Positions 1 to 10,808 of a DNA stretch of 64,000 bases are shown in pieces. Location: IMG/VR virus record IMGVR_UViG_3300022660_000063, positions 1 to 64,000 of that record. One strand, given 5' to 3'. The position numbers and the translations under genes were made by a program. The notes below the pieces were generated by a model, which made no database searches, was not told the origin of the DNA, and saw only the letters and a program-made list of their open reading frames with translations. Source of the DNA: a virus. Lineage: Duplodnaviria; Heunggongvirae; Uroviricota; Caudoviricetes. How positions within the stretch are numbered: position 1 is the stretch's first letter; each line of letters starts with the position of its first letter.

Positions 1-22
1 GGAAGACAACTAAAAGTGTTAG

Positions 23-706
23 ACCAGATATAACCAACACTTAAAAGCATCTGAAATATATGCTCAAGAACATAGAAATCTATCATTACTTTATGAGGCA
101 ATTAATAAATATGGTAAGTGTAATTTCGGTGTCGAGACAATTGACACTGCCTCTACTATAGAAGAGTTAAATAAGAAAGAGATTTATTGAATAAAGTTTT
201 ATAGAGACTCATTTGGCAAAGAGTTTTGTTACAATATGGCATCGGGTGGAGATGGTGGGGATACAAACTCTGGCAAGACCCAATCAAAGGAATGGATAGC
301 TAAACGCTTGGCTAGTAGAGAAACTTATGATGTATCAGATGAAACTCGTGAGAAACAAAGACTAGCACATTTAAATCAAGTACCTTGGAATAAAGGCAAG
401 AAAATGTCAGCAGAGTATTGTGAGAAATGTAGAGAACGGAGTAAAGGTAACACTAATCATTTAGGGCATAAAGCAACTGAATTACAGAGAAAGCGTATGA
501 GTGACTCACATAAAGGTCAGATACCTTGGAATAAAGGTTTGAAGGGGTGTATTACCCAGTCAGAAGAAACAAAGAAAAAACGAGCAGATAAATTAAGAGG
601 GACTATTGGTATTAATGATGGCACCAAAAATACTCGAGTACCTAAAGAATACTTAGACAAGTATTTAAATGCAGGATGGTCGATTGGTTGATTAAAGAAA
701 AAATAG
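23..706 (+). CDS. GIY-YIG homing endonuclease, C-terminal part of catalytic domain plus NUMOD3-type DNA-binding repeats; 5' partial, possible frameshift near pos 20-30; two in-frame TGA (188-190, 689-691) read as Trp
   Basis: Translation gives '...LLYEAINKYGKCNFGVETIDTASTIEELNKKEIY[TGA=W]IKFYRDSFGKEFCYNMASGG', matching the I-TevI-like motif 'E.fWI..l....GYNi'. Two 'HxxSEETKxK / IPWNKG' NUMOD3-like repeats follow. ORF 236..691 continues through TGA to TAG at 704-706. Confidence 0.6.
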
Positions 707-1969: not shown

Positions 1970-2502
1970 TGCAGTATTTTATTAGTGATACACATTTCTT
2001 CCATGAAAATGTAATTAGAATTTGTAATAGACCTTTTATAGATTTAGAAAGAATGCATGCGGTTCTAATACATAATTGGAATAAAAAAGTAAAACCTGAA
2101 GATGAGATTTATATATTAGGTGATTTATCTTACAAATGTCCAAATGGTGGTTATCAGCAGTTATTTACTTTAATTAAAAACTTAAATGGTAAGAAACATT
2201 TAATAATAGGCAATCATGATAGTAAATGGTTAAAAAGCTATAATAATCAATGTAAAGAAAAACTGTTTGAATCTATACAAATGTATAAAGATATCTATGA
2301 TGACAAAAATAGAAGAATTATAATGTTCCACTATCCTATAGAAGATTGGGATGGAATGTATAGAGGTAGTTATCATTTATATGGACATGTGCATAATGCA
2401 GATAATGGGTATAAAGTTATTCCAAATAGATTTAATGTTGGCGCAGATGTAATAGATTTTGAACCTAAAACACTTGATGAATTGATAGAAATAAACAAAT
2501 AA
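1969..2502 (+). CDS. calcineurin-like metallophosphoesterase (candidate RNA-end phosphatase/phosphodiesterase)
   Basis: DTHFFH, ILGDLSYK, IIGNHDSKW and YHLYGHVHN motifs (MPE blocks D-x-H, GD, GNHD, GHxH). Confidence 0.7.
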   Translation: MQYFISDTHFFHENVIRICNRPFIDLERMHAVLIHNWNKKVKPEDEIYILGDLSYKCPNGGYQQLFTLIKNLNGKKHLIIGNHDSKWLKSYNNQCKEKLFESIQMYKDIYDDKNRRIIMFHYPIEDWDGMYRGSYHLYGHVHNADNGYKVIPNRFNVGADVIDFEPKTLDELIEINK

Positions 2503-2535
2503 AATTGAAGTTTTAAATACTTCAATTTTTTATTT
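2501..2535 (+). terminator. intrinsic terminator hairpin
   Basis: aaaattgaag / cttcaatttt perfect 10-bp stem, 9-nt loop, followed by a T-run. Confidence 0.5.
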
Positions 2536-2538
2536 AAC

Positions 2539-2550
2539 TGCTAAATTTAT
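2539..2550 (+). promoter_or_regulatory. TGCTAAATTTAT motif (candidate late promoter element), copy 1
   Basis: One of 5 copies of this 12-mer; here 26 nt upstream of the ATG of a fiber-like gene. Confidence 0.4.
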
Positions 2551-2576
2551 TAGATGATAAATCAAGGAGACTTTAA

Positions 2577-3824
2577 ATGAATAATAGAATAAGATTAGCA
2601 AGAGGGACTTCAGATAAAAGAAAAGCAAGTGACTTAGAAATAGTCCCAGGTCAATTATTTTTCGAGACTGACACGAATTTATTATATTCAACTACCAACA
2701 ATAAAAACACCCCTCTTAAAAATGCTACAAGTATTTATAATAAAAATTTTATAGTATCTCTAGATAAACCTATACATCAAGATAATTTTGATATGTGGGC
2801 TAGTTTTAATTCTATAATAGATTCTTTTATAGGGGATTGGATTGGAGAAACAGTTGTATCTTCTACTAGAACAGATTTTATTAAATTTAAATATAACAAC
2901 GCAGGTCAAGTATATTTCAATATAAGTTGGAATGGATATTATGGTCATACTATTTTAGTAGATGATTCAAATCCTCCAATTTATTTTAAAACAGAAACTA
3001 ATAAGTTGATATTTCATTTTAAATTTACTCACCCACAGACTACCCTTACATATTATGGTAGATTAACTTTAAGTTCTGTTTCAGATAATGAGTCAATAAA
3101 TGCCTTATACGAATATGATAACCCAATAAATGGTTGGGAATCTATACTTAATTTAAATTTACTTAAACAAGAAGAAGATATAGAAGGCGATTTTGCGAAT
3201 TTAGATTATTCTAAACCAGTTGCATTAATGTATAAATACAATGAGGACTATGTAAATTATGTGCCAGAATTGGCAACTAATGTTGTAAATGCAATAAGGA
3301 ATAATGATGGAGAAAACAAAAGCTTAACTCTAAATAAAAATATATTGAATATAAATAATGCACCTTTAACTAACTATGATTATGACACAACAAACATACC
3401 TTATACAACATTATTATACACATTAGATTCTAGAGATGGTAATTATACCCCAGCAACTTTTTCTGATAATTTATACATAAAATTAGGTCAGTATGAGAGT
3501 CTTAATATTGAATTGATGATTAGAAGTACTTATACTTCTAATGGTGAATCTTTTACTTCCACGCATAAATTATCTTTTGATAATATAAATACTAGCACCT
3601 TTAGTTCAAGTTCTGTTTTAATACATAGTTACAATGAGGGAAATCAACTTATATCCTATATATTTACATGTAGATTATATGATTATGATTCAGCAACTGG
3701 CACTTATAGAATTGATTTTGGTCATGATGCTGGAACATTGATTTGGAAAAATACAAGTGCTTCATCAGACTACACAAATACAATTTCGATAGATTCAAGC
3801 TCAGTTAAAAGAGTATTTAAATAA
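2577..3824 (+). CDS. tail-fiber-like protein (conserved phage fiber N-terminal motif)
   Basis: N-terminus 'RIRLARGTSDKRKASDLEIVPGQLFFETDTNLLY' matches the widespread fiber N-terminal motif (RGT..w...n.vL..GElg.eTDT..l); remainder Asn/Thr/Ser-rich. Confidence 0.5.
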   Translation: MNNRIRLARGTSDKRKASDLEIVPGQLFFETDTNLLYSTTNNKNTPLKNATSIYNKNFIVSLDKPIHQDNFDMWASFNSIIDSFIGDWIGETVVSSTRTDFIKFKYNNAGQVYFNISWNGYYGHTILVDDSNPPIYFKTETNKLIFHFKFTHPQTTLTYYGRLTLSSVSDNESINALYEYDNPINGWESILNLNLLKQEEDIEGDFANLDYSKPVALMYKYNEDYVNYVPELATNVVNAIRNNDGENKSLTLNKNILNINNAPLTNYDYDTTNIPYTTLLYTLDSRDGNYTPATFSDNLYIKLGQYESLNIELMIRSTYTSNGESFTSTHKLSFDNINTSTFSSSSVLIHSYNEGNQLISYIFTCRLYDYDSATGTYRIDFGHDAGTLIWKNTSASSDYTNTISIDSSSVKRVFK

Positions 3825-4411
3825 TGAACAAGATACAATTAAATGGAATAATAAAAAATATAGAATATTCTCATTATATACAAGATATAGAATTTTATAA
3901 AGCTAATCTAATAACTAGAAGAGAAAATGGAAAAGAAGATATTATAAATTTAAAATTTAAAAAGTTTTCAAACCCATATAAAGAAAATCAAGAAATATCT
4001 ATTCTAGGTAATATTAGAACTTTTAATAGACAAGAAGAAGATAGAAATAAAGTAGAATTATTTGTATTTACTTATTTTGATGAAGCAGAAGAAAGTCCTA
4101 ATAATCTCGCATACATAGATGGTAGAATATGTAAAAAGAATAATTTAAGAAAAACATCATCTGGAAAAGATGTTTTAGATTTTATATTAGCAAACAATAT
4201 AGAAAATAATGGGCAAGTATTAAATGTATATTTACCTTGTGTTGCATGAGGGAAGTGTGCTAAGGCATTAAATAAATTAAATGTTGGGGACAAGATTTTA
4301 ATTCAAGGTCAATTACAATCGAGAGAGTATAAAAAGAGATTAACAGAAACTGATTATGAGATACGAGTTTGTCATGAACTGAGTGTAAATACTTTTGAAA
4401 CTTTACAGTAA
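3824..4411 (+). CDS. ssb: single-stranded DNA-binding protein (OB fold) with in-frame TGA=Trp at 4247-4249
   Basis: ORF 3824..4249 continues in frame through TGA: '...LPCVA[W]GKCAKALNKLNVGDKILIQGQLQSREYKKRLTETDYEIRV...'. This matches SSB 'CVtWrrqAEn....kKGs.v.v.GrLqtR.Y', whose Trp is invariant. Confidence 0.8.
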
Positions 4412-4517
4412 AAAGTTTACATAGGAGTTTACTATATTCTTTTTATTCTAAAAGGATTAATAAAATAAATATACTACTAAGTTTACATTAATAGTAAACT
4501 ATTAAGGATAATTTAAG

Positions 4518-4892
4518 ATGGAATTTAAATATTATTATGTACAAACATATTCAGATACACTAAATATAGAAAATTTGGGTAATTGTTTTATAGAGGCGTT
4601 CAGTGATAAAGGTGTTAAAGTATATTTATGGATAAGAACAGAATTAGGCTTTTCTAAAATACTTGAAGCTGGCCCTTATATAGATGATGGGAATATACCT
4701 TGCAAAGTTTGTGATATATCATTCTTTCAAACAGAGTTCTCCGAATCAAAGATAATAAAGAGAATTCAGAGTTTTTTGAATATGCCAAGGTATGCTATAA
4801 CTCAAGCATTTGATAAACAAGAAGAATATTCGGAAGAAGAGAAATTTCAAAAACTGTATAATATTATAAATTATATGGAGAAAGAAAACTAA
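4518..4892 (+). CDS. hypothetical protein
   Basis: 124-aa ORF, RBS present, no motif recognised. Confidence 0.4.
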   Translation: MEFKYYYVQTYSDTLNIENLGNCFIEAFSDKGVKVYLWIRTELGFSKILEAGPYIDDGNIPCKVCDISFFQTEFSESKIIKRIQSFLNMPRYAITQAFDKQEEYSEEEKFQKLYNIINYMEKEN

Positions 4893-5095
4893 TGCAAGAA
4901 GAAATAATAAGAGATTTTTATGGTAAAATTATAGGTTATATTCAAACTGATGATAAAGGAAATAAAGTCATAAGAGATTTTTATCGTAGGATACTTGGTA
5001 GATATGATAAAGCATCTAATGTTACAAGGGATTTTTATGGTAGGATAATTGCTAGAGGGGATCAAGCTTCTGGCCTATTGTATAGAGGAAAATAA
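4892..5095 (+). CDS. small protein with three 'RDFYG(K/R)II' repeats
   Basis: Triple internal repeat RDFYGKIIGYI / RDFYRRILGRY / RDFYGRIIARG. Confidence 0.4.
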   Translation: MQEEIIRDFYGKIIGYIQTDDKGNKVIRDFYRRILGRYDKASNVTRDFYGRIIARGDQASGLLYRGK

Positions 5096-5586
5096 TGAGA
5101 TTTTTAAGAGAAAATTCAAACATAGCTTTATATCAAGAAATTTTAAATTTATTTGATAATCAAATAAGCTTTGGTTATTTTGGTGGGGCTGCTTATATAC
5201 TGAAGGATGGTGAATATTTAAATATAGAGGAAGGATCTCACATGTGAGTAGATGATTTTCTTTATGATAATAATTTAATAGAGACTTCACCATTCGAACT
5301 AGACAAACTTATTCTTATAGACGATTTTAATTGCATAAGAGTAAATGATGGAGTATTAACAGATTCAGATCCTTACATAGAATTACCTACGAAATTACCT
5401 ACTTATTCTCAACTAGATACGTTAGAAAATTGGCTGACTAAATATCCTATTATATGAATAGGTATTAGAGGAGATAGAAAAGCTGGTAAGTATTTTAATA
5501 CAAAAGATATTTTACCAGAAGATATTATAAAAAAGATAAAAAGATATTATAGTTCTGGTATATTATACGAGAATTATAAGATATAA
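5095..5586 (+). CDS. hypothetical protein (163 aa), visible only when TGA is read as Trp (two in-frame TGA at 5245 and 5455)
   Basis: ATG at 5095 overlaps the previous stop (TAATG); continuous reading frame to TAA 5584-5586 with RBS-like GAGG upstream. In standard code this is a gene-free gap in an otherwise gapless region. Confidence 0.5.
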
Positions 5587-5610
5587 ATTCAAAGAAAAGG
5601 AGATATAGTA

Positions 5611-5668
5611 GTTCTTATGAACATTTAAAACGTTTATAAGAACTATTTTATTCACTGTATAAATCATA
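5611..5668 (+). promoter_or_regulatory. hairpin plus extended -10 (TGTATAAAT) upstream of nrdD
   Basis: Inverted repeat agttcttat...ataagaact followed by cactgTGtATAAAT. Confidence 0.35.
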
Positions 5669-5680
5669 AGGAGGATATCA

Positions 5681-8600
5681 ATGCAAATTATAAAACGAGA
5701 TGGATCAAAGCAAAAATTTGATGAGTATAAAATATGGAAAGCAATATTAGGTTGTTTTGAAGATTGTTGTCCTAAAGGTGAGTATGTTAATGATGGTGTG
5801 ATAACAGAATTAACAAATAAAGTAACACAACAATTAGATAAAAGAAAAAATTATACTGTAGAACAAATTCAAGATATTGTAGAACTAACTTTGATGGAAG
5901 CTAATAAATATGAACAAGCAAAAGCATACATAGAATATAGACAATTACATAAACTAGCTAGAAATAGTTATACTGAACTAATGAATAAAGTTAAAGCTAA
6001 ACTAGAAGCAAAGAATGTAGAAAATTCAAATGCAAACCTAGATGAAAATACTTTCAGTGGAAGAGAGAAAGAAGCATTTGGAACTATATTAAAAGAATAT
6101 GCACTTAATAATTTAGTATCAGAAACTACTAGAAATAATCATATTAATAATGAAATTTATATACATGATTTAGATGCTTATGCAAGTGGTATGCATAATT
6201 GTTTATCAATTCCTTTAGATGATTTATTAGCAAAAGGATTTAAAGTTAAACAGACAGATATAAGACCTGCTGGAACAGTAAATACAGCGATGCAATTGTC
6301 AGCTGTTATAATGCAATTACAAAGTTTATGTCAATTTGGTGGTGTATCATATACTCACTTTGATTGGTCAATGGTCCCTTATGTAAGAAAGAGTTTTTAT
6401 AAACATTATAAAGAAGGATTATATTGGTTCGGTAATGAAAAGTATTTAGAAGGAATTACAAAAGAAACTTCTATAATTGACGAAAAATATAAACTAAATC
6501 AAGATGCTTATGAATATGCTATGAGACAAACTGAAAAAGAAACACATCAAGCAGTTGAAGCATTATATCACAATTTAAATTCATTACAATCAAGAAGTGG
6601 ACAACAACTACCATTTAGCTCTATAAATTATGGAACTTGCACTTTACCAGAAGGTAGAATGATAACAGAAGAATTGTTAAATGTATCTATTGAAGGTTTA
6701 GGAAAATATCATAGAACAAGTATATTCCCTTGTGGTATATTCCAGTGCATGAAAGGTGTTAACAGAAAACCGGGCGATCCAAATTATGACTTATTTAAGT
6801 TAGCATTAAAATCAACTTCAAAGAGATTGTATCCAAATTATGCCTCAGTTGATTGGAGTGGTAATGCAGGTTACGATGTAAATGATCCAAAAACATATTT
6901 TAGTACAATGGGTGCTTTGAGTGGTCATGAACATCTAACAGTTAAAATAGGAAATGAAGAACCTATTGACTTATCTATCAGAGACTTATTTGATTATTGT
7001 AAAACAGATGATTTACAAAATTATAAGAAAACACAGATTTGGTATAACAGAGAAAAATTAAATGAAGAGCCTTTAGGTAGACATTATCAAGAAAAATCTG
7101 GATTACCTAATCTACCAGGTGTTTATTCAATAACTTATTTACCAGAAGATGTCACATATATTGGAAGTTCAAGTTCTATTTCTAGAAGATGCGCTGAGCA
7201 TAAATGTGCTATAGGCAAAACAGGTGGGATTGATGCAGGAATAAATTTTGGGGATATTGATACAGCTAATTATGAATTTAAAGTATTAGAAATAACTGAA
7301 GATTATAAAGAAGCTGAAAACCTTTATATTCAAAAGAATGCAAATATAAATCCTAGAGGAACAGATAAGAAATATTATAAGTTAATTACTCAAAAATCTA
7401 GGCATAGAGTATATGATAGACCTGTATTTAAAGTTGATTTGAGTAAAAAACAAGAATTGATTGATTTATCTGAATTTGATATTAAAGTATTAGATAGAGA
7501 TAATAAATGGGTAAAGATCAAACATATCTTTAAAAATGATAAATTAAATACTCCGTATATGATGCATATCTATTACAAAGAATACGATAAAGAATATTGT
7601 TTGTCTTGTACTGAAGATCACCCTCTATGGACAGGAGATAAATTTACAAGAGCAGATCAATTAAAAATAGGTGATAAACTTTATAGAGCTGATAATTTAG
7701 AGTTAGAAATAACTGATATATGTTGGCATTGGGAAGCAGTTGATAGCTACGATATAGGTACTGAAACTGGTTCATTTATAGGTTCAGATATTATAATGCA
7801 TAACTGTAGAACTGCAAATGGTTGGGATATTAATGGTTTAAAACAACAAAAAGATGGTAGAGGAAATATTGCACCTACTACTATTATATTACCAACAATA
7901 GCAATGAAATCTAAAGAATGTACAAGAGCTTCAGAAGAATCAGATATAGATGTATTTATGAGATTACTTGAATGTAAAATAAATGAAGCAAAAGACTCTT
8001 TGATAGAAAGATTTGAGCATATCTGTAGCCAATCACCTAAATCAGCCCCATTTATGTATGAAAATAACACAATGGCTGGTTATATTCCAGAAGAAGGAAT
8101 TAGGAGTGCTTTAAAACATGGAACATTAGTTATAGGTCAATTAGGTCTTGCTGAATGTTTACAAATATTAATTGGAAAAGACCATACTACAAAAGAAGGT
8201 ATGGAACTTGCTAAAAAGATAGAACAATTATTTAAAGATAAATGTGCTTATTTTAAAGAACAATATAAATTAAATTTTGGTGTTTATTATACTCCTGCAG
8301 AATCTTTATGTAAAACTGCTATGACTAAATTTAAAGAAAAATATGGTATTATTCCAAATATATCTGATAGAAAATATTTTACTAATTCAATGCATGTTCC
8401 AGTATACCATAACATAAATGCTTTTGATAAAATAGATATTGAAAGTCAATTAACAGGTTATTCTTCAGCTGGGTGTATTACTTATGTAGAATTAGATTCA
8501 TCTTCAATTCATAATATAGAAGCTATTGAAAAATTAGTTAATTATGCTATGGATAAAGATATACCTTACTTTGCTATAAACGTACCAAATGATGTTTGTA

Positions 8601-8776
8601 TGGACTGCGGACATCAAGAAGAAATGAATGATAAATGTCCAGAATGTGGTTCAGATAATATTGAAAGATTAAGAAGAGTTACAGGATATGTTTCTACAGA
8701 TTATCATAATTTTAATGAAGGTAAGATAGCGGAAGTAGAAGATAGAGTCAAACACACAGGAGTTCCTATTGAATAA
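5681..8776 (+). CDS. nrdD: anaerobic (class III) ribonucleoside-triphosphate reductase, interrupted by an in-frame intein
   Basis: 1031 aa (about 300 aa longer than typical). C-terminal glycyl-radical motif 'RRVTGYVSTDY' and Cys4 Zn site 'CMDCGH...CPECG'; internal intein/endonuclease segment (see next feature). Confidence 0.9.
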   Translation: MQIIKRDGSKQKFDEYKIWKAILGCFEDCCPKGEYVNDGVITELTNKVTQQLDKRKNYTVEQIQDIVELTLMEANKYEQAKAYIEYRQLHKLARNSYTELMNKVKAKLEAKNVENSNANLDENTFSGREKEAFGTILKEYALNNLVSETTRNNHINNEIYIHDLDAYASGMHNCLSIPLDDLLAKGFKVKQTDIRPAGTVNTAMQLSAVIMQLQSLCQFGGVSYTHFDWSMVPYVRKSFYKHYKEGLYWFGNEKYLEGITKETSIIDEKYKLNQDAYEYAMRQTEKETHQAVEALYHNLNSLQSRSGQQLPFSSINYGTCTLPEGRMITEELLNVSIEGLGKYHRTSIFPCGIFQCMKGVNRKPGDPNYDLFKLALKSTSKRLYPNYASVDWSGNAGYDVNDPKTYFSTMGALSGHEHLTVKIGNEEPIDLSIRDLFDYCKTDDLQNYKKTQIWYNREKLNEEPLGRHYQEKSGLPNLPGVYSITYLPEDVTYIGSSSSISRRCAEHKCAIGKTGGIDAGINFGDIDTANYEFKVLEITEDYKEAENLYIQKNANINPRGTDKKYYKLITQKSRHRVYDRPVFKVDLSKKQELIDLSEFDIKVLDRDNKWVKIKHIFKNDKLNTPYMMHIYYKEYDKEYCLSCTEDHPLWTGDKFTRADQLKIGDKLYRADNLELEITDICWHWEAVDSYDIGTETGSFIGSDIIMHNCRTANGWDINGLKQQKDGRGNIAPTTIILPTIAMKSKECTRASEESDIDVFMRLLECKINEAKDSLIERFEHICSQSPKSAPFMYENNTMAGYIPEEGIRSALKHGTLVIGQLGLAECLQILIGKDHTTKEGMELAKKIEQLFKDKCAYFKEQYKLNFGVYYTPAESLCKTAMTKFKEKYGIIPNISDRKYFTNSMHVPVYHNINAFDKIDIESQLTGYSSAGCITYVELDSSSIHNIEAIEKLVNYAMDKDIPYFAINVPNDVCMDCGHQEEMNDKCPECGSDNIERLRRVTGYVSTDYHNFNEGKIAEVEDRVKHTGVPIE
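6914..7804 (+). mobile_element. intein (about 297 aa) inside NrdD carrying a GIY-YIG endonuclease domain
   Basis: Block A-like 'ALSGHEHLTVKIGNEEPIDLSIRDL' and block B-like 'TEDHPLWTGDKFTRADQLKIGDKL'. Block F/G 'SYDIGTETGSFIGSDIIMHN' followed by Cys+1 'CRTANGW'. In between lies 'GVYSITYLPEDVTYIGSSSSISRRCAEHK' (GIY-YIG). N-terminal boundary is approximate (Ala1 at 6914 or Ser1 at 6920). Confidence 0.6.
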
Positions 8777-8813: not shown

Positions 8814-9398
8814 ATGTTTATAGGGATAGGCTGTTTAGCCTATCTATCATCTCCTGATAAAATAGTGGGTGCTTTCTTATTTACTGTAGGATTATTTGTT
8901 ATACTTACTTTTAAATTAAATTTATTCACAGGTAAGATTTGTTATGTTATAGAAAAGAAAAATTATTTAGAAGTAGTTATAACTTTACTTGGTAATTTTA
9001 TAGGAACATTATTACTAGCTTTAATGTGTAGAGCTACACGGTTAATTAATCTAATAGAGTATGCAAATGCAATATGTGAAATCAAATTAAGTGATTCCTA
9101 TATAAGTTTATTTATACTCGGAATTTTATGTAACATATTAATTTATATAGCGGTAGAAGGATACAATAAGTTCAAAGATATAAGAGGTATTTTATCTCTT
9201 TTCTTTGGAGTTATTATCTTTGTAGTTATAGGATTAGAACACTGTATTGCAGACATGTTTTACTTTAATTTTACTTTTATATATTCTTGAGAGGTATTAT
9301 TAAGATTATTAATTATAGTTTTAGGAAACGGTATAGGTGGAATAAGTATAAGATATTTATTTAGGAGACGTAATGAAATTTTTAAAGGAAGAGATTAA
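8814..9398 (+). CDS. formate/nitrite transporter (FNT, FocA/NirC-like) channel, compact 6-TM form; in-frame TGA=Trp at 9288-9290
   Basis: FNT signatures 'GAFLFTVGLFVILTFKLNLFTG', 'GILCNILIYIAV', 'IGLEHCIADMFYF' (FEHsIANMF) and, after the TGA, 'LGNGIGG' (LGNIVGG). Start uncertain: in-frame upstream sequence '..NWFIKSILAG' continues the TM1 pattern. Confidence 0.75.
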
Positions 9399-9945
9399 TA
9401 ATTTATACCACGCATATCATGGATCTAATGCAGAATTCGACAGATTTGAGCAGCAATTCATTGGAGCTCATGCATTAGGGCATGGATTTGGCTTTTACTT
9501 TACAGACGAAATTAATCAAGCTAAAAGTTATGGTGATTATGTTATAGAAGCAGATTTATTAATTAGAAAACCATTTTCAGATGACAGTATAACTATAGCT
9601 AAAAATCAAGTTAAAAATTATATTAGAAAATATGTAGATCCTATTGGAAAAGATTATTTATCTAACTATGGTTGGTATGAAGATGAAGGTTATGAAAATG
9701 TTTTAAATAATTGTGTAGAATCTTTATTTGCATATAACAATAGTGATAATGATATTATTAGTGAAATATTGTTTAATGTACAAAATAAATATACTGATGA
9801 AGCTTATGATGCTATATTTGAAATATTTGGAAAAGATGGAATTATATATCAAGGCTTTTCTGGCTGGCAAGGCGAACCTTTAACAAATTATTTAGTTTAT
9901 AGCAATTCACAAATATTAAATAAGAAAAAAATTAAGGTGAGATAA
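9373..9945 (+). CDS. PARP-like ADP-ribosyltransferase domain protein (H-Y-x class; catalytic Glu apparently replaced)
   Basis: 'LYHAYHGSNAEF....GHGFGFYFTDEINQAKSYG....TNYLVYSNSQI' parallels the PARP catalytic signature (HGS ... G.GiYFA ... KS.gY ... [E]YiVY) seen in ORF 21008..22177, but with Asn in place of Glu. Confidence 0.5.
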   Translation: MKFLKEEINNLYHAYHGSNAEFDRFEQQFIGAHALGHGFGFYFTDEINQAKSYGDYVIEADLLIRKPFSDDSITIAKNQVKNYIRKYVDPIGKDYLSNYGWYEDEGYENVLNNCVESLFAYNNSDNDIISEILFNVQNKYTDEAYDAIFEIFGKDGIIYQGFSGWQGEPLTNYLVYSNSQILNKKKIKVR

Positions 9946-9946
9946 T

Positions 9947-10399
9947 ATGAGATATCAACAAATTTTAGATTGCTCTATTGCAGATGGTGAAGGTGTCAGA
10001 GTTGTTTTATTTGTTACAGGCTGTTCACACTACTGCAAAGGCTGTCACAATCCAGAATGTTGGGACGAGACACGAGGTAAACTATTTACAGAAGAAACCA
10101 AACAAAAATTATTTGAATTATTAGATAGAGATTACATAGATGGGATTACATTTAGTGGTGGGGATCCATTTTATCCAGGAAACAGAGATGAAATTGTAGC
10201 TCTAACAAAAGAGATAAAAGAAAAATTTCCTAGTAAAACTATTTGGTTATATACTGGTTATTTGTATGAAGACATGAAAAACTTTGGTGTATTAAATTAC
10301 ATAGACGTTTTAGTGGATGGGAAATTTGAACAAGATAAAAGAGATATTACATTACCATTTAGAGGTTCCAGCAATCAAAGAATAATAAGATTAAATTAA
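9947..10399 (+). CDS. nrdG: anaerobic RNR activating protein (radical SAM)
   Basis: 'GEGVRVVLFVTGCSHYCKGCHNPECWD' (CxxxCxxC) and 'FSGGDPFY'; immediately follows nrdD. Confidence 0.85.
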   Translation: MRYQQILDCSIADGEGVRVVLFVTGCSHYCKGCHNPECWDETRGKLFTEETKQKLFELLDRDYIDGITFSGGDPFYPGNRDEIVALTKEIKEKFPSKTIWLYTGYLYEDMKNFGVLNYIDVLVDGKFEQDKRDITLPFRGSSNQRIIRLN

Positions 10400-10475: not shown

Positions 10476-10808
10476 ATGTTTATAGAAAAAGTAGAATTTA
10501 AACAAGATATAGCTTATGTATATGTAGCAGGATGTAGTAATAATTGCAAGCAATGCAGAAAGTCACCGCCAAAAGATAATAAGAATTTTAAGTATTTAGA
10601 TATTAAAAATACATTAATATCACAAATAAATAATAATGATATCTGTCAAGTTATAATAACAGGTAATGACCCTTTATATTGCGGTAATAAAAAAGATTTA
10701 CAAGATTTTGTGAGATCAATTTCTGTATTTAAGATCTCTATTATAAGCAAATATAATACTAACTGGTTTAACAATGAGAAACATATTGAGATTGTTTCAA
10801 ATGAATAA
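10476..10808 (+). CDS. short NrdG-like radical-SAM paralog (C-terminally truncated or degenerate)
   Basis: 'VAGCSNNCKQC' CxxxCxxC and 'ITGNDPLY' (compare nrdG FSGGDPFY); only 110 aa. Confidence 0.45.
   Translation: MFIEKVEFKQDIAYVYVAGCSNNCKQCRKSPPKDNKNFKYLDIKNTLISQINNNDICQVIITGNDPLYCGNKKDLQDFVRSISVFKISIISKYNTNWFNNEKHIEIVSNE

Follow-up and report, generated by a model that had tools for sequence, protein, structure and literature searches.

A GIY-YIG domain carried in frame by a probable intein at the radical-initiator cysteine of a phage anaerobic ribonucleotide reductase

The DNA analysed here, referred to as the window, is a stretch of 64,000 nucleotides (positions 1 to 64,000 of the IMG/VR Caudoviricetes record IMGVR_UViG_3300022660_000063). 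It holds nrdD, the gene for the anaerobic ribonucleotide reductase NrdD, as one uninterrupted open reading frame (ORF) of 1031 amino acids at 5681–8776 (+). Between Gly411 and Cys709 this protein carries an in-frame insert of 297 residues (nt 6914–7804, +), identified here with high confidence as an intein that runs from Ala1 to His296-Asn297. An earlier reading of the window, made from the sequence only, had found NrdD about 300 residues too long and had proposed an intein with a GIY-YIG homing endonuclease domain; the coordinates given there prove exact to the base. The strings that it quoted were likewise placed correctly, with ALSGHEHL at nt 6914 (residue 412), GVYSITYL at 7118, TEDHPLWT at 7610, SYDIGTETGS at 7745 and IIMHN/C ending at 7804 (a slash denotes the junction here and below).

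The NrdD models of Pfam and NCBIfam match the protein in two parts, the first ending at residue 411 and the second restarting at residues 706–709. The N-extein (residues 1–411; 5681–6913, +), recognised by the Pfam ATP-cone and NRDD models and by NCBIfam, consists of the ATP-cone and the first half of the catalytic barrel and ends in YFSTMG. The C-extein (residues 709–1031 and the stop codon; 7805–8776, +) begins with Cys709 (codon 7805–7807), the +1 splice nucleophile, is matched by Pfam NRDD and Gly_radical, and retains the radical-initiator cysteine, the zinc-ribbon cysteines and the glycyl-radical motif RVTGY. When the insert is removed, the resulting NrdD of 734 residues aligns over its full length with the solved NrdD of Prevotella copri (8p23; E 4e-124), which reads atMGCRT at the site. 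The junction is free of gaps against 8p23 and against the solved reductase 9d3x, and 58 insert-less alleles from related phage contigs read STMGCRTANG, so that alignment of the exteins to intein-free NrdD fixes both junctions.

Cys709 aligns with chain index 420 of 8p23, which corresponds to native Cys416 (the chain index being the native number plus 4, as for the glycyl-radical Gly711 at index 715). Native Cys416 of P. copri NrdD is the radical-initiator cysteine, at the tip of a loop running through the barrel (PMC11226230). The insert thus directly precedes the catalytic cysteine, which doubles as its +1 residue, and the 1031-residue precursor is expected to be inactive because 297 residues interrupt the loop. 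Ribonucleotide reductases do have lineage-specific insertions, and the segment could in principle be a permanent domain native to one NrdD lineage and never spliced. This we find hardly credible, as the segment breaks the loop of the radical-initiator cysteine, combines a HINT with a GIY-YIG fold, ends in His-Asn/Cys and has a further copy in an unrelated SNF2 helicase. Moreover, the segment is missing from the 58 close homologues, the place where the sequence-only reading had proposed to look for it, and so is not a native NrdD domain.

Screening of the single insert sequence with domain models gave 28.4 bits for GIY-YIG (PF01541; curated cut-off 22.6), and weak scores, under their cut-offs, for the HINT and intein models. 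An alignment of 21 full-length relatives (A2) then served as a profile against PDB sequences and as AlphaFold2 input. Positions 192–302 of the profile match residues 29–147 of the NrdJ-1 intein (8ubs) at E 1.1e-12, positions 186–303 match residues 14–128 of the gp41-1 intein (6qaz) at E 1.6e-4, and positions 67–150 match the catalytic domain of I-TevI (1mk0) at E 1.6e-7. Of the model searches suggested earlier, that for the GIY-YIG domain therefore succeeded on the insert itself, and that for the intein fell short on the single sequence and was strong with the family profile. Arg92 and Glu135 of the intein align with the I-TevI positions mutated in entries 1ln0 and 1mk0.

The structure predicted by AlphaFold2 from the 21 sequences reached a mean predicted local distance difference test score (pLDDT) of 88.2 and a predicted template modelling score (pTM) of 0.84, and superseded a poor model from 8 sequences (pLDDT 62.6). 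Its top Foldseek matches are inteins throughout, and the predicted model shows a complete HINT protein-splicing fold assembled from residues 1–40 and 181–297. The N-terminal HINT segment (intein residues 1–40; 6914–7033, +) carries block A, or N1, 'ALSGHEHLTVKIG', and comprises two strands (7–12 and 18–21), a helix (22–31) and a short strand (38–40). A linker of low confidence follows (residues 41–68; 7034–7117, +; pLDDT 57–77), variable in length and gapped in A2. The GIY-YIG nuclease domain (residues 69–146; 7118–7351, +) contains GVY (Tyr71), YIG (Tyr82), Arg92, His96, Glu135 and Asn146, and is modelled with strands at 69–75, 80–86 and 120–127 and helices at 89–103 and 131–141. From the nuclease back to the HINT fold runs a second linker, basic and poorly ordered (residues 147–180; 7352–7453, +; pLDDT 35–68), in which no DNA-binding module is recognisable.

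With the linkers on either side of the GIY-YIG unit disordered in the model, the HINT barrel is completed by the C-terminal segment (residues 181–297; 7454–7804, +). This contains block B with Thr233-x-x-His236 (7610–7621, +), block F with Asp280 at position 4 (7751–7753, +) and the His296-Asn297 end of block G (7799–7804, +). Block F follows block B after only about 40 residues, and the canonical endonuclease site is accordingly empty. The nuclease lies instead behind motif N1 and its helix and in front of the strand that follows (residues 40–181), ahead of block B, where the sequence-only reading had put it.

The first residue of the intein is Ala412, encoded by GCT at 6914–6916. Ala and Ser had both been considered for this position; that it lacks a nucleophile is borne out, and Ser is discarded because the spliced NrdD aligns without gaps with 8p23, 9d3x and the 58 intein-free alleles, placing the junction at Gly411/Ala412. 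A start at Ser3 was tried and rejected, since that column holds Ser, Ala, Gly, Asp, Met, Arg or Phe in the relatives and after such a shift the catalytic loop would be two residues too long. Across the family, position 1 is mostly Ala, with Cys in P0014, P0016, P0032 and all split forms (see below) and Ser in P0026. The occurrence of Ala, Cys and Ser in this one column confirms the register and points to a nucleophile given up in lineages that keep everything else. T233, D235, H236 and P237 of block B, D280 of block F, and H296 and N297 are invariant in A2, every family member in the set terminates in His-Asn followed by Cys, and no cysteine within the intein is invariant. Refinement of the boundaries thus leaves the splice-junction residues His296-Asn297 and Cys+1 in place, with Ala1 where the first nucleophile would be.

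Inteins without an N-terminal nucleophile have been divided into two classes (Tori et al., PMC2807308). Class 3 is marked by Trp at block B position 12, Cys at block F position 4 and Thr at block G position 5 (the WCT triplet). Class 2 has neither N-terminal nucleophile nor WCT triplet, keeps Thr7 and His10 of block B and uses Cys+1 to attack the N-terminal peptide bond directly; the survey, of 2009, counted five archaeal KlbA orthologues in it. The window copy has no Cys, Ser or Thr at position 1, as class 1 requires. The class 3 mechanism was rejected, as the three triplet positions hold Leu238, Asp280 and Met295 and so are mismatched at 3/3; Trp239 is one position off the class 3 Trp and is variable in the second clade of the family. 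Ala1, T233, H236 and Cys709, together with Leu, Asp and Met at the triplet positions, constitute a class 2 (KlbA-type) signature. Of the class 2 or 3 mechanism foreseen for an Ala1 intein, the former half is therefore retained and the latter dropped, and on the conserved residues splicing by the class 2 route is somewhat more probable than not.

A nucleophile other than Cys+1 was also considered, either Ser3 after a shifted start or an internal cysteine, for example Cys232, that would make the first branched intermediate as in class 3. There is indeed a Ser at position 3 of the window copy, and in the Ala1 members of its clade a Cys directly precedes the block B Thr and a Trp lies three residues past the His (SCTEDHPLW), both of which the two Cys1 members lack. 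Position 3 is, however, variable as described above, Ala1 members of the second clade lack that cysteine (RITEDHPLH), no intein cysteine is invariant, and the class 3 triplet is missing at all three positions, which together make such a route very improbable. As an observation in its own right, at A2 columns 232 and 239 all Ala1 members of the window clade read (S/T/C)CTEDHPLW, against ATEDHPFY and ATCDHPFF in the two Cys1 members. In the window clade, though not in the second, Ala1 is hence accompanied by Cys at block B position 6 and by Trp at position 13, an association in a small sample that may reflect only ancestry.

Exhaustive searching of 1.84 billion cluster representatives with HMMER yielded 44 matches, and a word-indexed protein search with the family profile added few members. 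The relatives available as DNA have 55–64% protein identity, too distant for dN/dS. The family has been seen in metagenomes only. Contiguous nuclease-bearing inteins at the same NrdD site form about 20 clusters at the 50% level, with 23–70% identity to the window copy, and the 1031-residue protein itself recurs in identical form on 22 metagenome contigs, the longest of 154.6 kb.

These data bear on whether the element is dead, that is, an intein inactivated by a change of Cys1 to Ala in an nrdD that is now a pseudogene or yields cleaved fragments while the host supplies NrdD. Standard inteins do stop splicing when residue 1 is mutated (PMC2807308), Cys1 is kept in 4/4 split relatives, and a phage is able to rely on the reductase of its host. 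Yet Ala1 is found in most of the approximately 25 family representatives, in both major clades and down to 23% identity, and the same sequences hold the block B Thr and His, the block F Asp, His-Asn, Cys+1 and the nuclease residues invariant. Furthermore, the exteins are intact with all catalytic motifs, nrdG, the activase gene, lies just downstream, and the identical protein is found on 22 contigs. We consider a dead element improbable.

One copy lies outside nrdD. On another phage-like contig (L009), an Ala1 intein 53% identical to that of the window occupies 5439–6317 within a gene at 5001–7787 for an SNF2-family helicase, where it interrupts the P-loop as WTMG/CGKS. The flanking DNA there, ACAATGGGG/TGTGG, resembles the nrdD site ACAATGGGT/TGTAG. 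Other members have lost the nuclease or retain it in degraded form, namely P0004-6 (191 residues, of which a short remnant aligns with the nuclease region), P0017 (242 residues), P0032 and P0040 (about 165 residues) and P0046 (222 residues); such nuclease-less and degenerate copies fit the decay phase of a homing cycle. P0053-P0087, in turn, are small free-standing GIY-YIG proteins related to the nuclease domain of the intein.

Split forms of the intein were confirmed in DNA at four loci (L008, L091, L093 and L094). At each, the upstream nrdD runs to MG/C, continues for 38–43 intein residues and then meets a stop codon. A second gene, opening with M-I-G-I-Y-K-I-T or M-S-C-G-I-Y, begins at that stop or overlaps it, and its product comprises the GIY-YIG domain, the remainder of the intein and the C-extein of NrdD. 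In 3/4 of the loci a ribosome-binding site, GGAGG or AGGAG, lies within the end of the upstream frame. Stop codon, ribosome-binding site and start codon thus fall in the place of linker 41–68 of the contiguous copy. All four split forms examined have Cys1. In a crude neighbour-joining tree, built on the shared core and without support values, both major clades contain Ala1 members and have Cys1 forms at their base; one Cys1 form and the Ser1 form are nested, and the split L008 form joins a mini-intein with Cys1 that is basal in the second clade. This arrangement tentatively suggests that the nucleophile was lost more than once.

The single intein of the window nrdD differs from several relatives in which further elements were observed. 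In L094 (genes at 1-1709, 1702-2517 and 2501-5155), L001, L003 and L004, nrdD is spread over several frames with extra elements; HNH or NUMOD genes lie between the nrdD fragments of L001 and L004, and P0019 has a second intein with HNH and NUMOD3. Two short contigs are of another kind. L007 (1-172) encodes a C-terminal intein part of 88% identity whose homology begins right after a stop codon with unrelated sequence upstream, and L006 (1-163) has an ORF with a block A-like start and a GIY-YIG domain (P0009) and no NrdD N-extein upstream; nested elements, rearrangements or assembly artefacts are possible in both.

We then considered the nuclease. Gly69, Tyr71, Tyr82, Gly84, Arg92, His96 and Glu135 are invariant in A2 and Asn146 is nearly so, and the Pfam GIY-YIG model is passed by 21/21 members, which agrees with the in-frame GIY-YIG domain first noticed in the insert. 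Over 58 alleles the consensus of the empty site is ACnATGGGn/TGyCGnACn..AAtGG, and the empty nrdD site is likely to be the target of the enzyme. Conservation of the nuclease residues, the ectopic SNF2 copy and the nuclease-less derivatives together form the pattern left by an active homing cycle, and active homing is, judged on this pattern, somewhat better than an even prospect. The domain might instead have ceased to act in homing, being in decay or retained for folding or DNA binding, with the intein inherited vertically. No DNA-binding module is found, the domain is lost or degraded in the copies listed above, and the intein is absent from all 80 related nrdD loci in IMG/VR, a public viral contig collection, so its spread is not pervasive. 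Against this stand six catalytic-type residues that are invariant or nearly so among 21 sequences otherwise 23–70% identical, all of which pass the GIY-YIG model, and the SNF2 copy, which at its look-alike site shows recent movement. Loss of the homing function is on balance unlikely, if not negligibly so.

Taken together, the data are best described by a mobile intein of an undescribed family, inserted in a phage nrdD at the exact boundary of the Gly and Cys codons in the MGCR loop, to which we assign a probability of about 0.75. A number of points weigh against it. Splicing with Ala1 and nuclease activity are both deduced from conservation, and as a phage nrdD is not necessarily essential, selection for splicing is itself argued from conservation. 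The split forms keep Cys1, and loss of the nucleophile may therefore be costly in some contexts. Any number and direction of the changes between Cys and Ala, and between split and fused, that are read from the crude tree without support are provisional. In addition, a Pfam search of the 21 members revealed no NUMOD, zinc-finger or helix-turn-helix family, and the split members are likewise without any. To our knowledge, the characterised GIY-YIG homing enzymes require a DNA-binding module. With no separate module present, the HINT domain and the basic linkers probably bind the target. In PI-SceI the splicing domain is partly responsible for target binding.

Other elements occupy the Gly/Cys insertion point, or lie next to it, in other phages. 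Thomasclavelia phage TR-TP2 is the sole GenBank phage with nucleotide similarity to the window nrdD. Its nrdD (L010, PQ571310.1 28610-29557) is annotated as two coding sequences, one ending YFST and the other resuming GCRTANGW, and an HNH endonuclease gene lies between them, together with a group I intron match below threshold (27.9 bits against 50). Rfam at its gathering threshold gave no match in six related loci. Among the 80 IMG/VR relatives, 17 are without a contiguous MGCR and have non-NrdD sequence, mostly with stops, directly upstream of CRTANG (L064-L073, L075, L078-L080, L083, L086 and L090). In 4/17 the upstream exon ends STMG and runs into unrelated sequence (STMG/KRKLQ), which places the break between the Gly and Cys codons; the 17 interruptions look like introns, although no intron model matched there. 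Furthermore, L082 (about 4210-5079) has at the same nrdD point an unrelated class 1 intein of about 290 residues, CHAPGTKIIM...TVTHN/C, with Cys1; it starts CHAPGTKIIMSDG and ends TVTHN/CRTANG. The intron of T4 nrdD (I-TevII) was also considered for this site and does not coincide with it, lying about 110 codons upstream of MGCR. One inter-codon position in nrdD is thus taken elsewhere by what look like group I introns and by an unrelated intein, with mobile elements converging on one catalytic-site sequence.

For a mobile class 2 intein the following course of events can be envisaged. Cys709 (+1), aided by Thr233 and His236 and by Asp280, would attack the Gly411-Ala412 bond directly and form a branched intermediate. 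Cyclisation of Asn297 would release the intein, and an S-to-N shift would restore STMG-CRT. The freed protein of 297 residues would then act as a homing endonuclease, cutting intein-less nrdD near ACnATGGGn/TGy during co-infection, and repair of the cut nrdD would copy the intein in. As to origin, the most likely course is that a free-standing GIY-YIG gene invaded the intein frame at the loop after N1, of which the split relatives may be a preserved split stage and the window copy an in-frame, fused stage.

The window is AT-rich, with about 27% G+C, and its most likely source is a large phage of a low-G+C anaerobe. Around nrdD lie genes for a peptide deformylase and a phosphoesterase, and nrdG (9947-10399); deformylase and nrdG are also found on the related contig L003. 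A second NrdG-like ORF of the radical S-adenosylmethionine type, of 110 residues (10476-10808, +; Fer4_12, E 5.7e-8), may be a duplicate or a remnant, or else a variant activase. Between nrdD and nrdG is an ADP-ribosyltransferase of the 'polyvalent protein' type (9373-9945, +; PF18760, E 4.4e-11). Directly after nrdD there is an ORF of 158 residues of the formate/nitrite transporter family (8814-9290, +; PF01226, E 1.3e-24, model positions 35-206 of 240). The window NrdD aligns with the formate-dependent type, with GRGN opposite the Asn435 stretch of 8p23; P. copri NrdD has Asn435 in place of the third cysteine (PMC11226230). The phage-borne formate channel fragment beside nrdD may be functionally linked to this formate-dependent type of NrdD.

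At the start of the window (1-691, +), NUMOD3 motifs are found in an ORF at 236-691, and the frame upstream of it is broken by TAA (nt 11), TAG (nt 20) and TGA (nt 188). The free-standing GIY-YIG/NUMOD3 endonuclease earlier placed at 1-706 is hence supported for its NUMOD3 motifs, and a GIY-YIG domain is undetectable in the part within the window. The TGA at nt 188 lies within KKEIY*IKFY, opposite the Trp of ENFWIKE in I-TevI. An alternative genetic code was considered for this TGA and is not supported for the window as a whole, in which TGG occurs at a normal rate, the long ORFs are unbroken and a few ORFs terminate at TGA. The frame is probably a decaying free-standing homing endonuclease gene.

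Each part of the element has known counterparts. NrdJ-1 and gp41-1 (8ubs, 6qaz) are cyanophage-like split mini-inteins from ocean metagenomes, broken at the canonical split site with an N-part of 88-105 residues, with Cys1 and with the nuclease as a separate gene, whereas the window nuclease is in frame, in a different loop and behind Ala1. The class 2 prototype, the KlbA intein of Methanocaldococcus jannaschii (2jnq), is an archaeal mini-intein without nuclease; it is not specially related in sequence to the window intein, several class 1 inteins scoring higher, and the family described here, unlike KlbA, also has Cys1 and Ser1 members. I-TevI and the phage GIY-YIG homing enzymes (1mk0/1ln0) share catalytic domain and residue set with the window intein, but are free-standing or intron-encoded and carry a C-terminal DNA-binding domain on a linker, while the window domain is tied at both ends into the intein. 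I-TevII, of the T4 nrdD intron, is a precedent for a GIY-YIG enzyme that targets phage nrdD. In PI-SceI, PI-PfuI and PI-PkoII a LAGLIDADG nuclease (HNH in some phage inteins) lies between the last N-terminal and the first C-terminal splicing motifs, and the window nuclease lies elsewhere.

A further parallel is offered by the atypically split inteins (the ocean-metagenome terminase intein of Dassa et al. 2009, AceL-TerL and VidaL; 6vgw, 6dsl), which are broken after N1 and the first helix, that is, in the loop into which the GIY-YIG domain is inserted here. The window copy differs in being contiguous, and its split relatives in having the nuclease joined to the C-terminal part of the intein rather than encoded by a separate gene. 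In the 'fractured genes' of Dassa et al. (PMC2677866), the two parts of a split intein lie on either side of a free-standing gene of the GIY-YIG or Vsr-like type, and these authors stated that GIY-YIG nucleases were not known in inteins. In their account, natural split sites and known homing endonuclease domains all fell in one region, with the exception of the terminase intein broken after N1; the atypical split site was later recognised there, with N-terminal fragments of about 15-25 residues (PMC11923092). A nuclease at that loop, present both as split genes and as in-frame fusions, fits the route of nuclease acquisition that Dassa et al. proposed.

Inteins in phage nrdD genes were noted earlier, in Clostridium phage c-st and Lactococcus phage 949 (PMC3653736), and an intein in nrdD as such is therefore not new; in jumbo phages of the gut, nrdD is also commonly fragmented (PMC12880540). 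Among the nucleases of non-canonical phage inteins, a survey from 2025 names HNH, antisense LAGLIDADG, Vsr-like and endonuclease VII-like types, with GIY-YIG only via Dassa et al. Our literature search for GIY-YIG inteins found no paper, with most subscription journals outside the search, so that a prior description is possible. A tblastn search with the intein against 50,697 GenBank phage records gave no match at E 1e-3, no family of PHROGs (phage protein families) was matched, and no family member bears a name from any source database. We could not find a description of an in-frame GIY-YIG domain in an intein, of a nuclease at this loop or of a class 2-type family outside KlbA. The element is made of known parts and follows known logic in a new arrangement.

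Both rules of Dassa et al. 2009, that no GIY-YIG nuclease is known in inteins and that the known intein nucleases share one site, are broken here, by an arrangement common to about 20 diverged lineages. Its insertion loop is the break point of the atypically split inteins, which are tools for protein labelling, and contiguous, split and nuclease-less relatives can be compared with one another. Natural Ala1, Cys1 and Ser1 members at one site make it testable how an intein dispenses with its first nucleophile, and a new mode of GIY-YIG targeting could come to light in a nuclease anchored at either end in a small fold. A broader view of the family, which we offer tentatively and at less than even odds, is that it records how inteins gain nucleases and how atypically split inteins are born. 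A GIY-YIG gene would have landed after N1, leaving a fractured nrdD, and the frames would later have fused. The nucleophile would have been lost more than once in the fused lineages, so that class 2 splicing would have arisen a second time, in phages, and the HINT domain would have taken on target binding for a nuclease devoid of its own DNA-binding domain.

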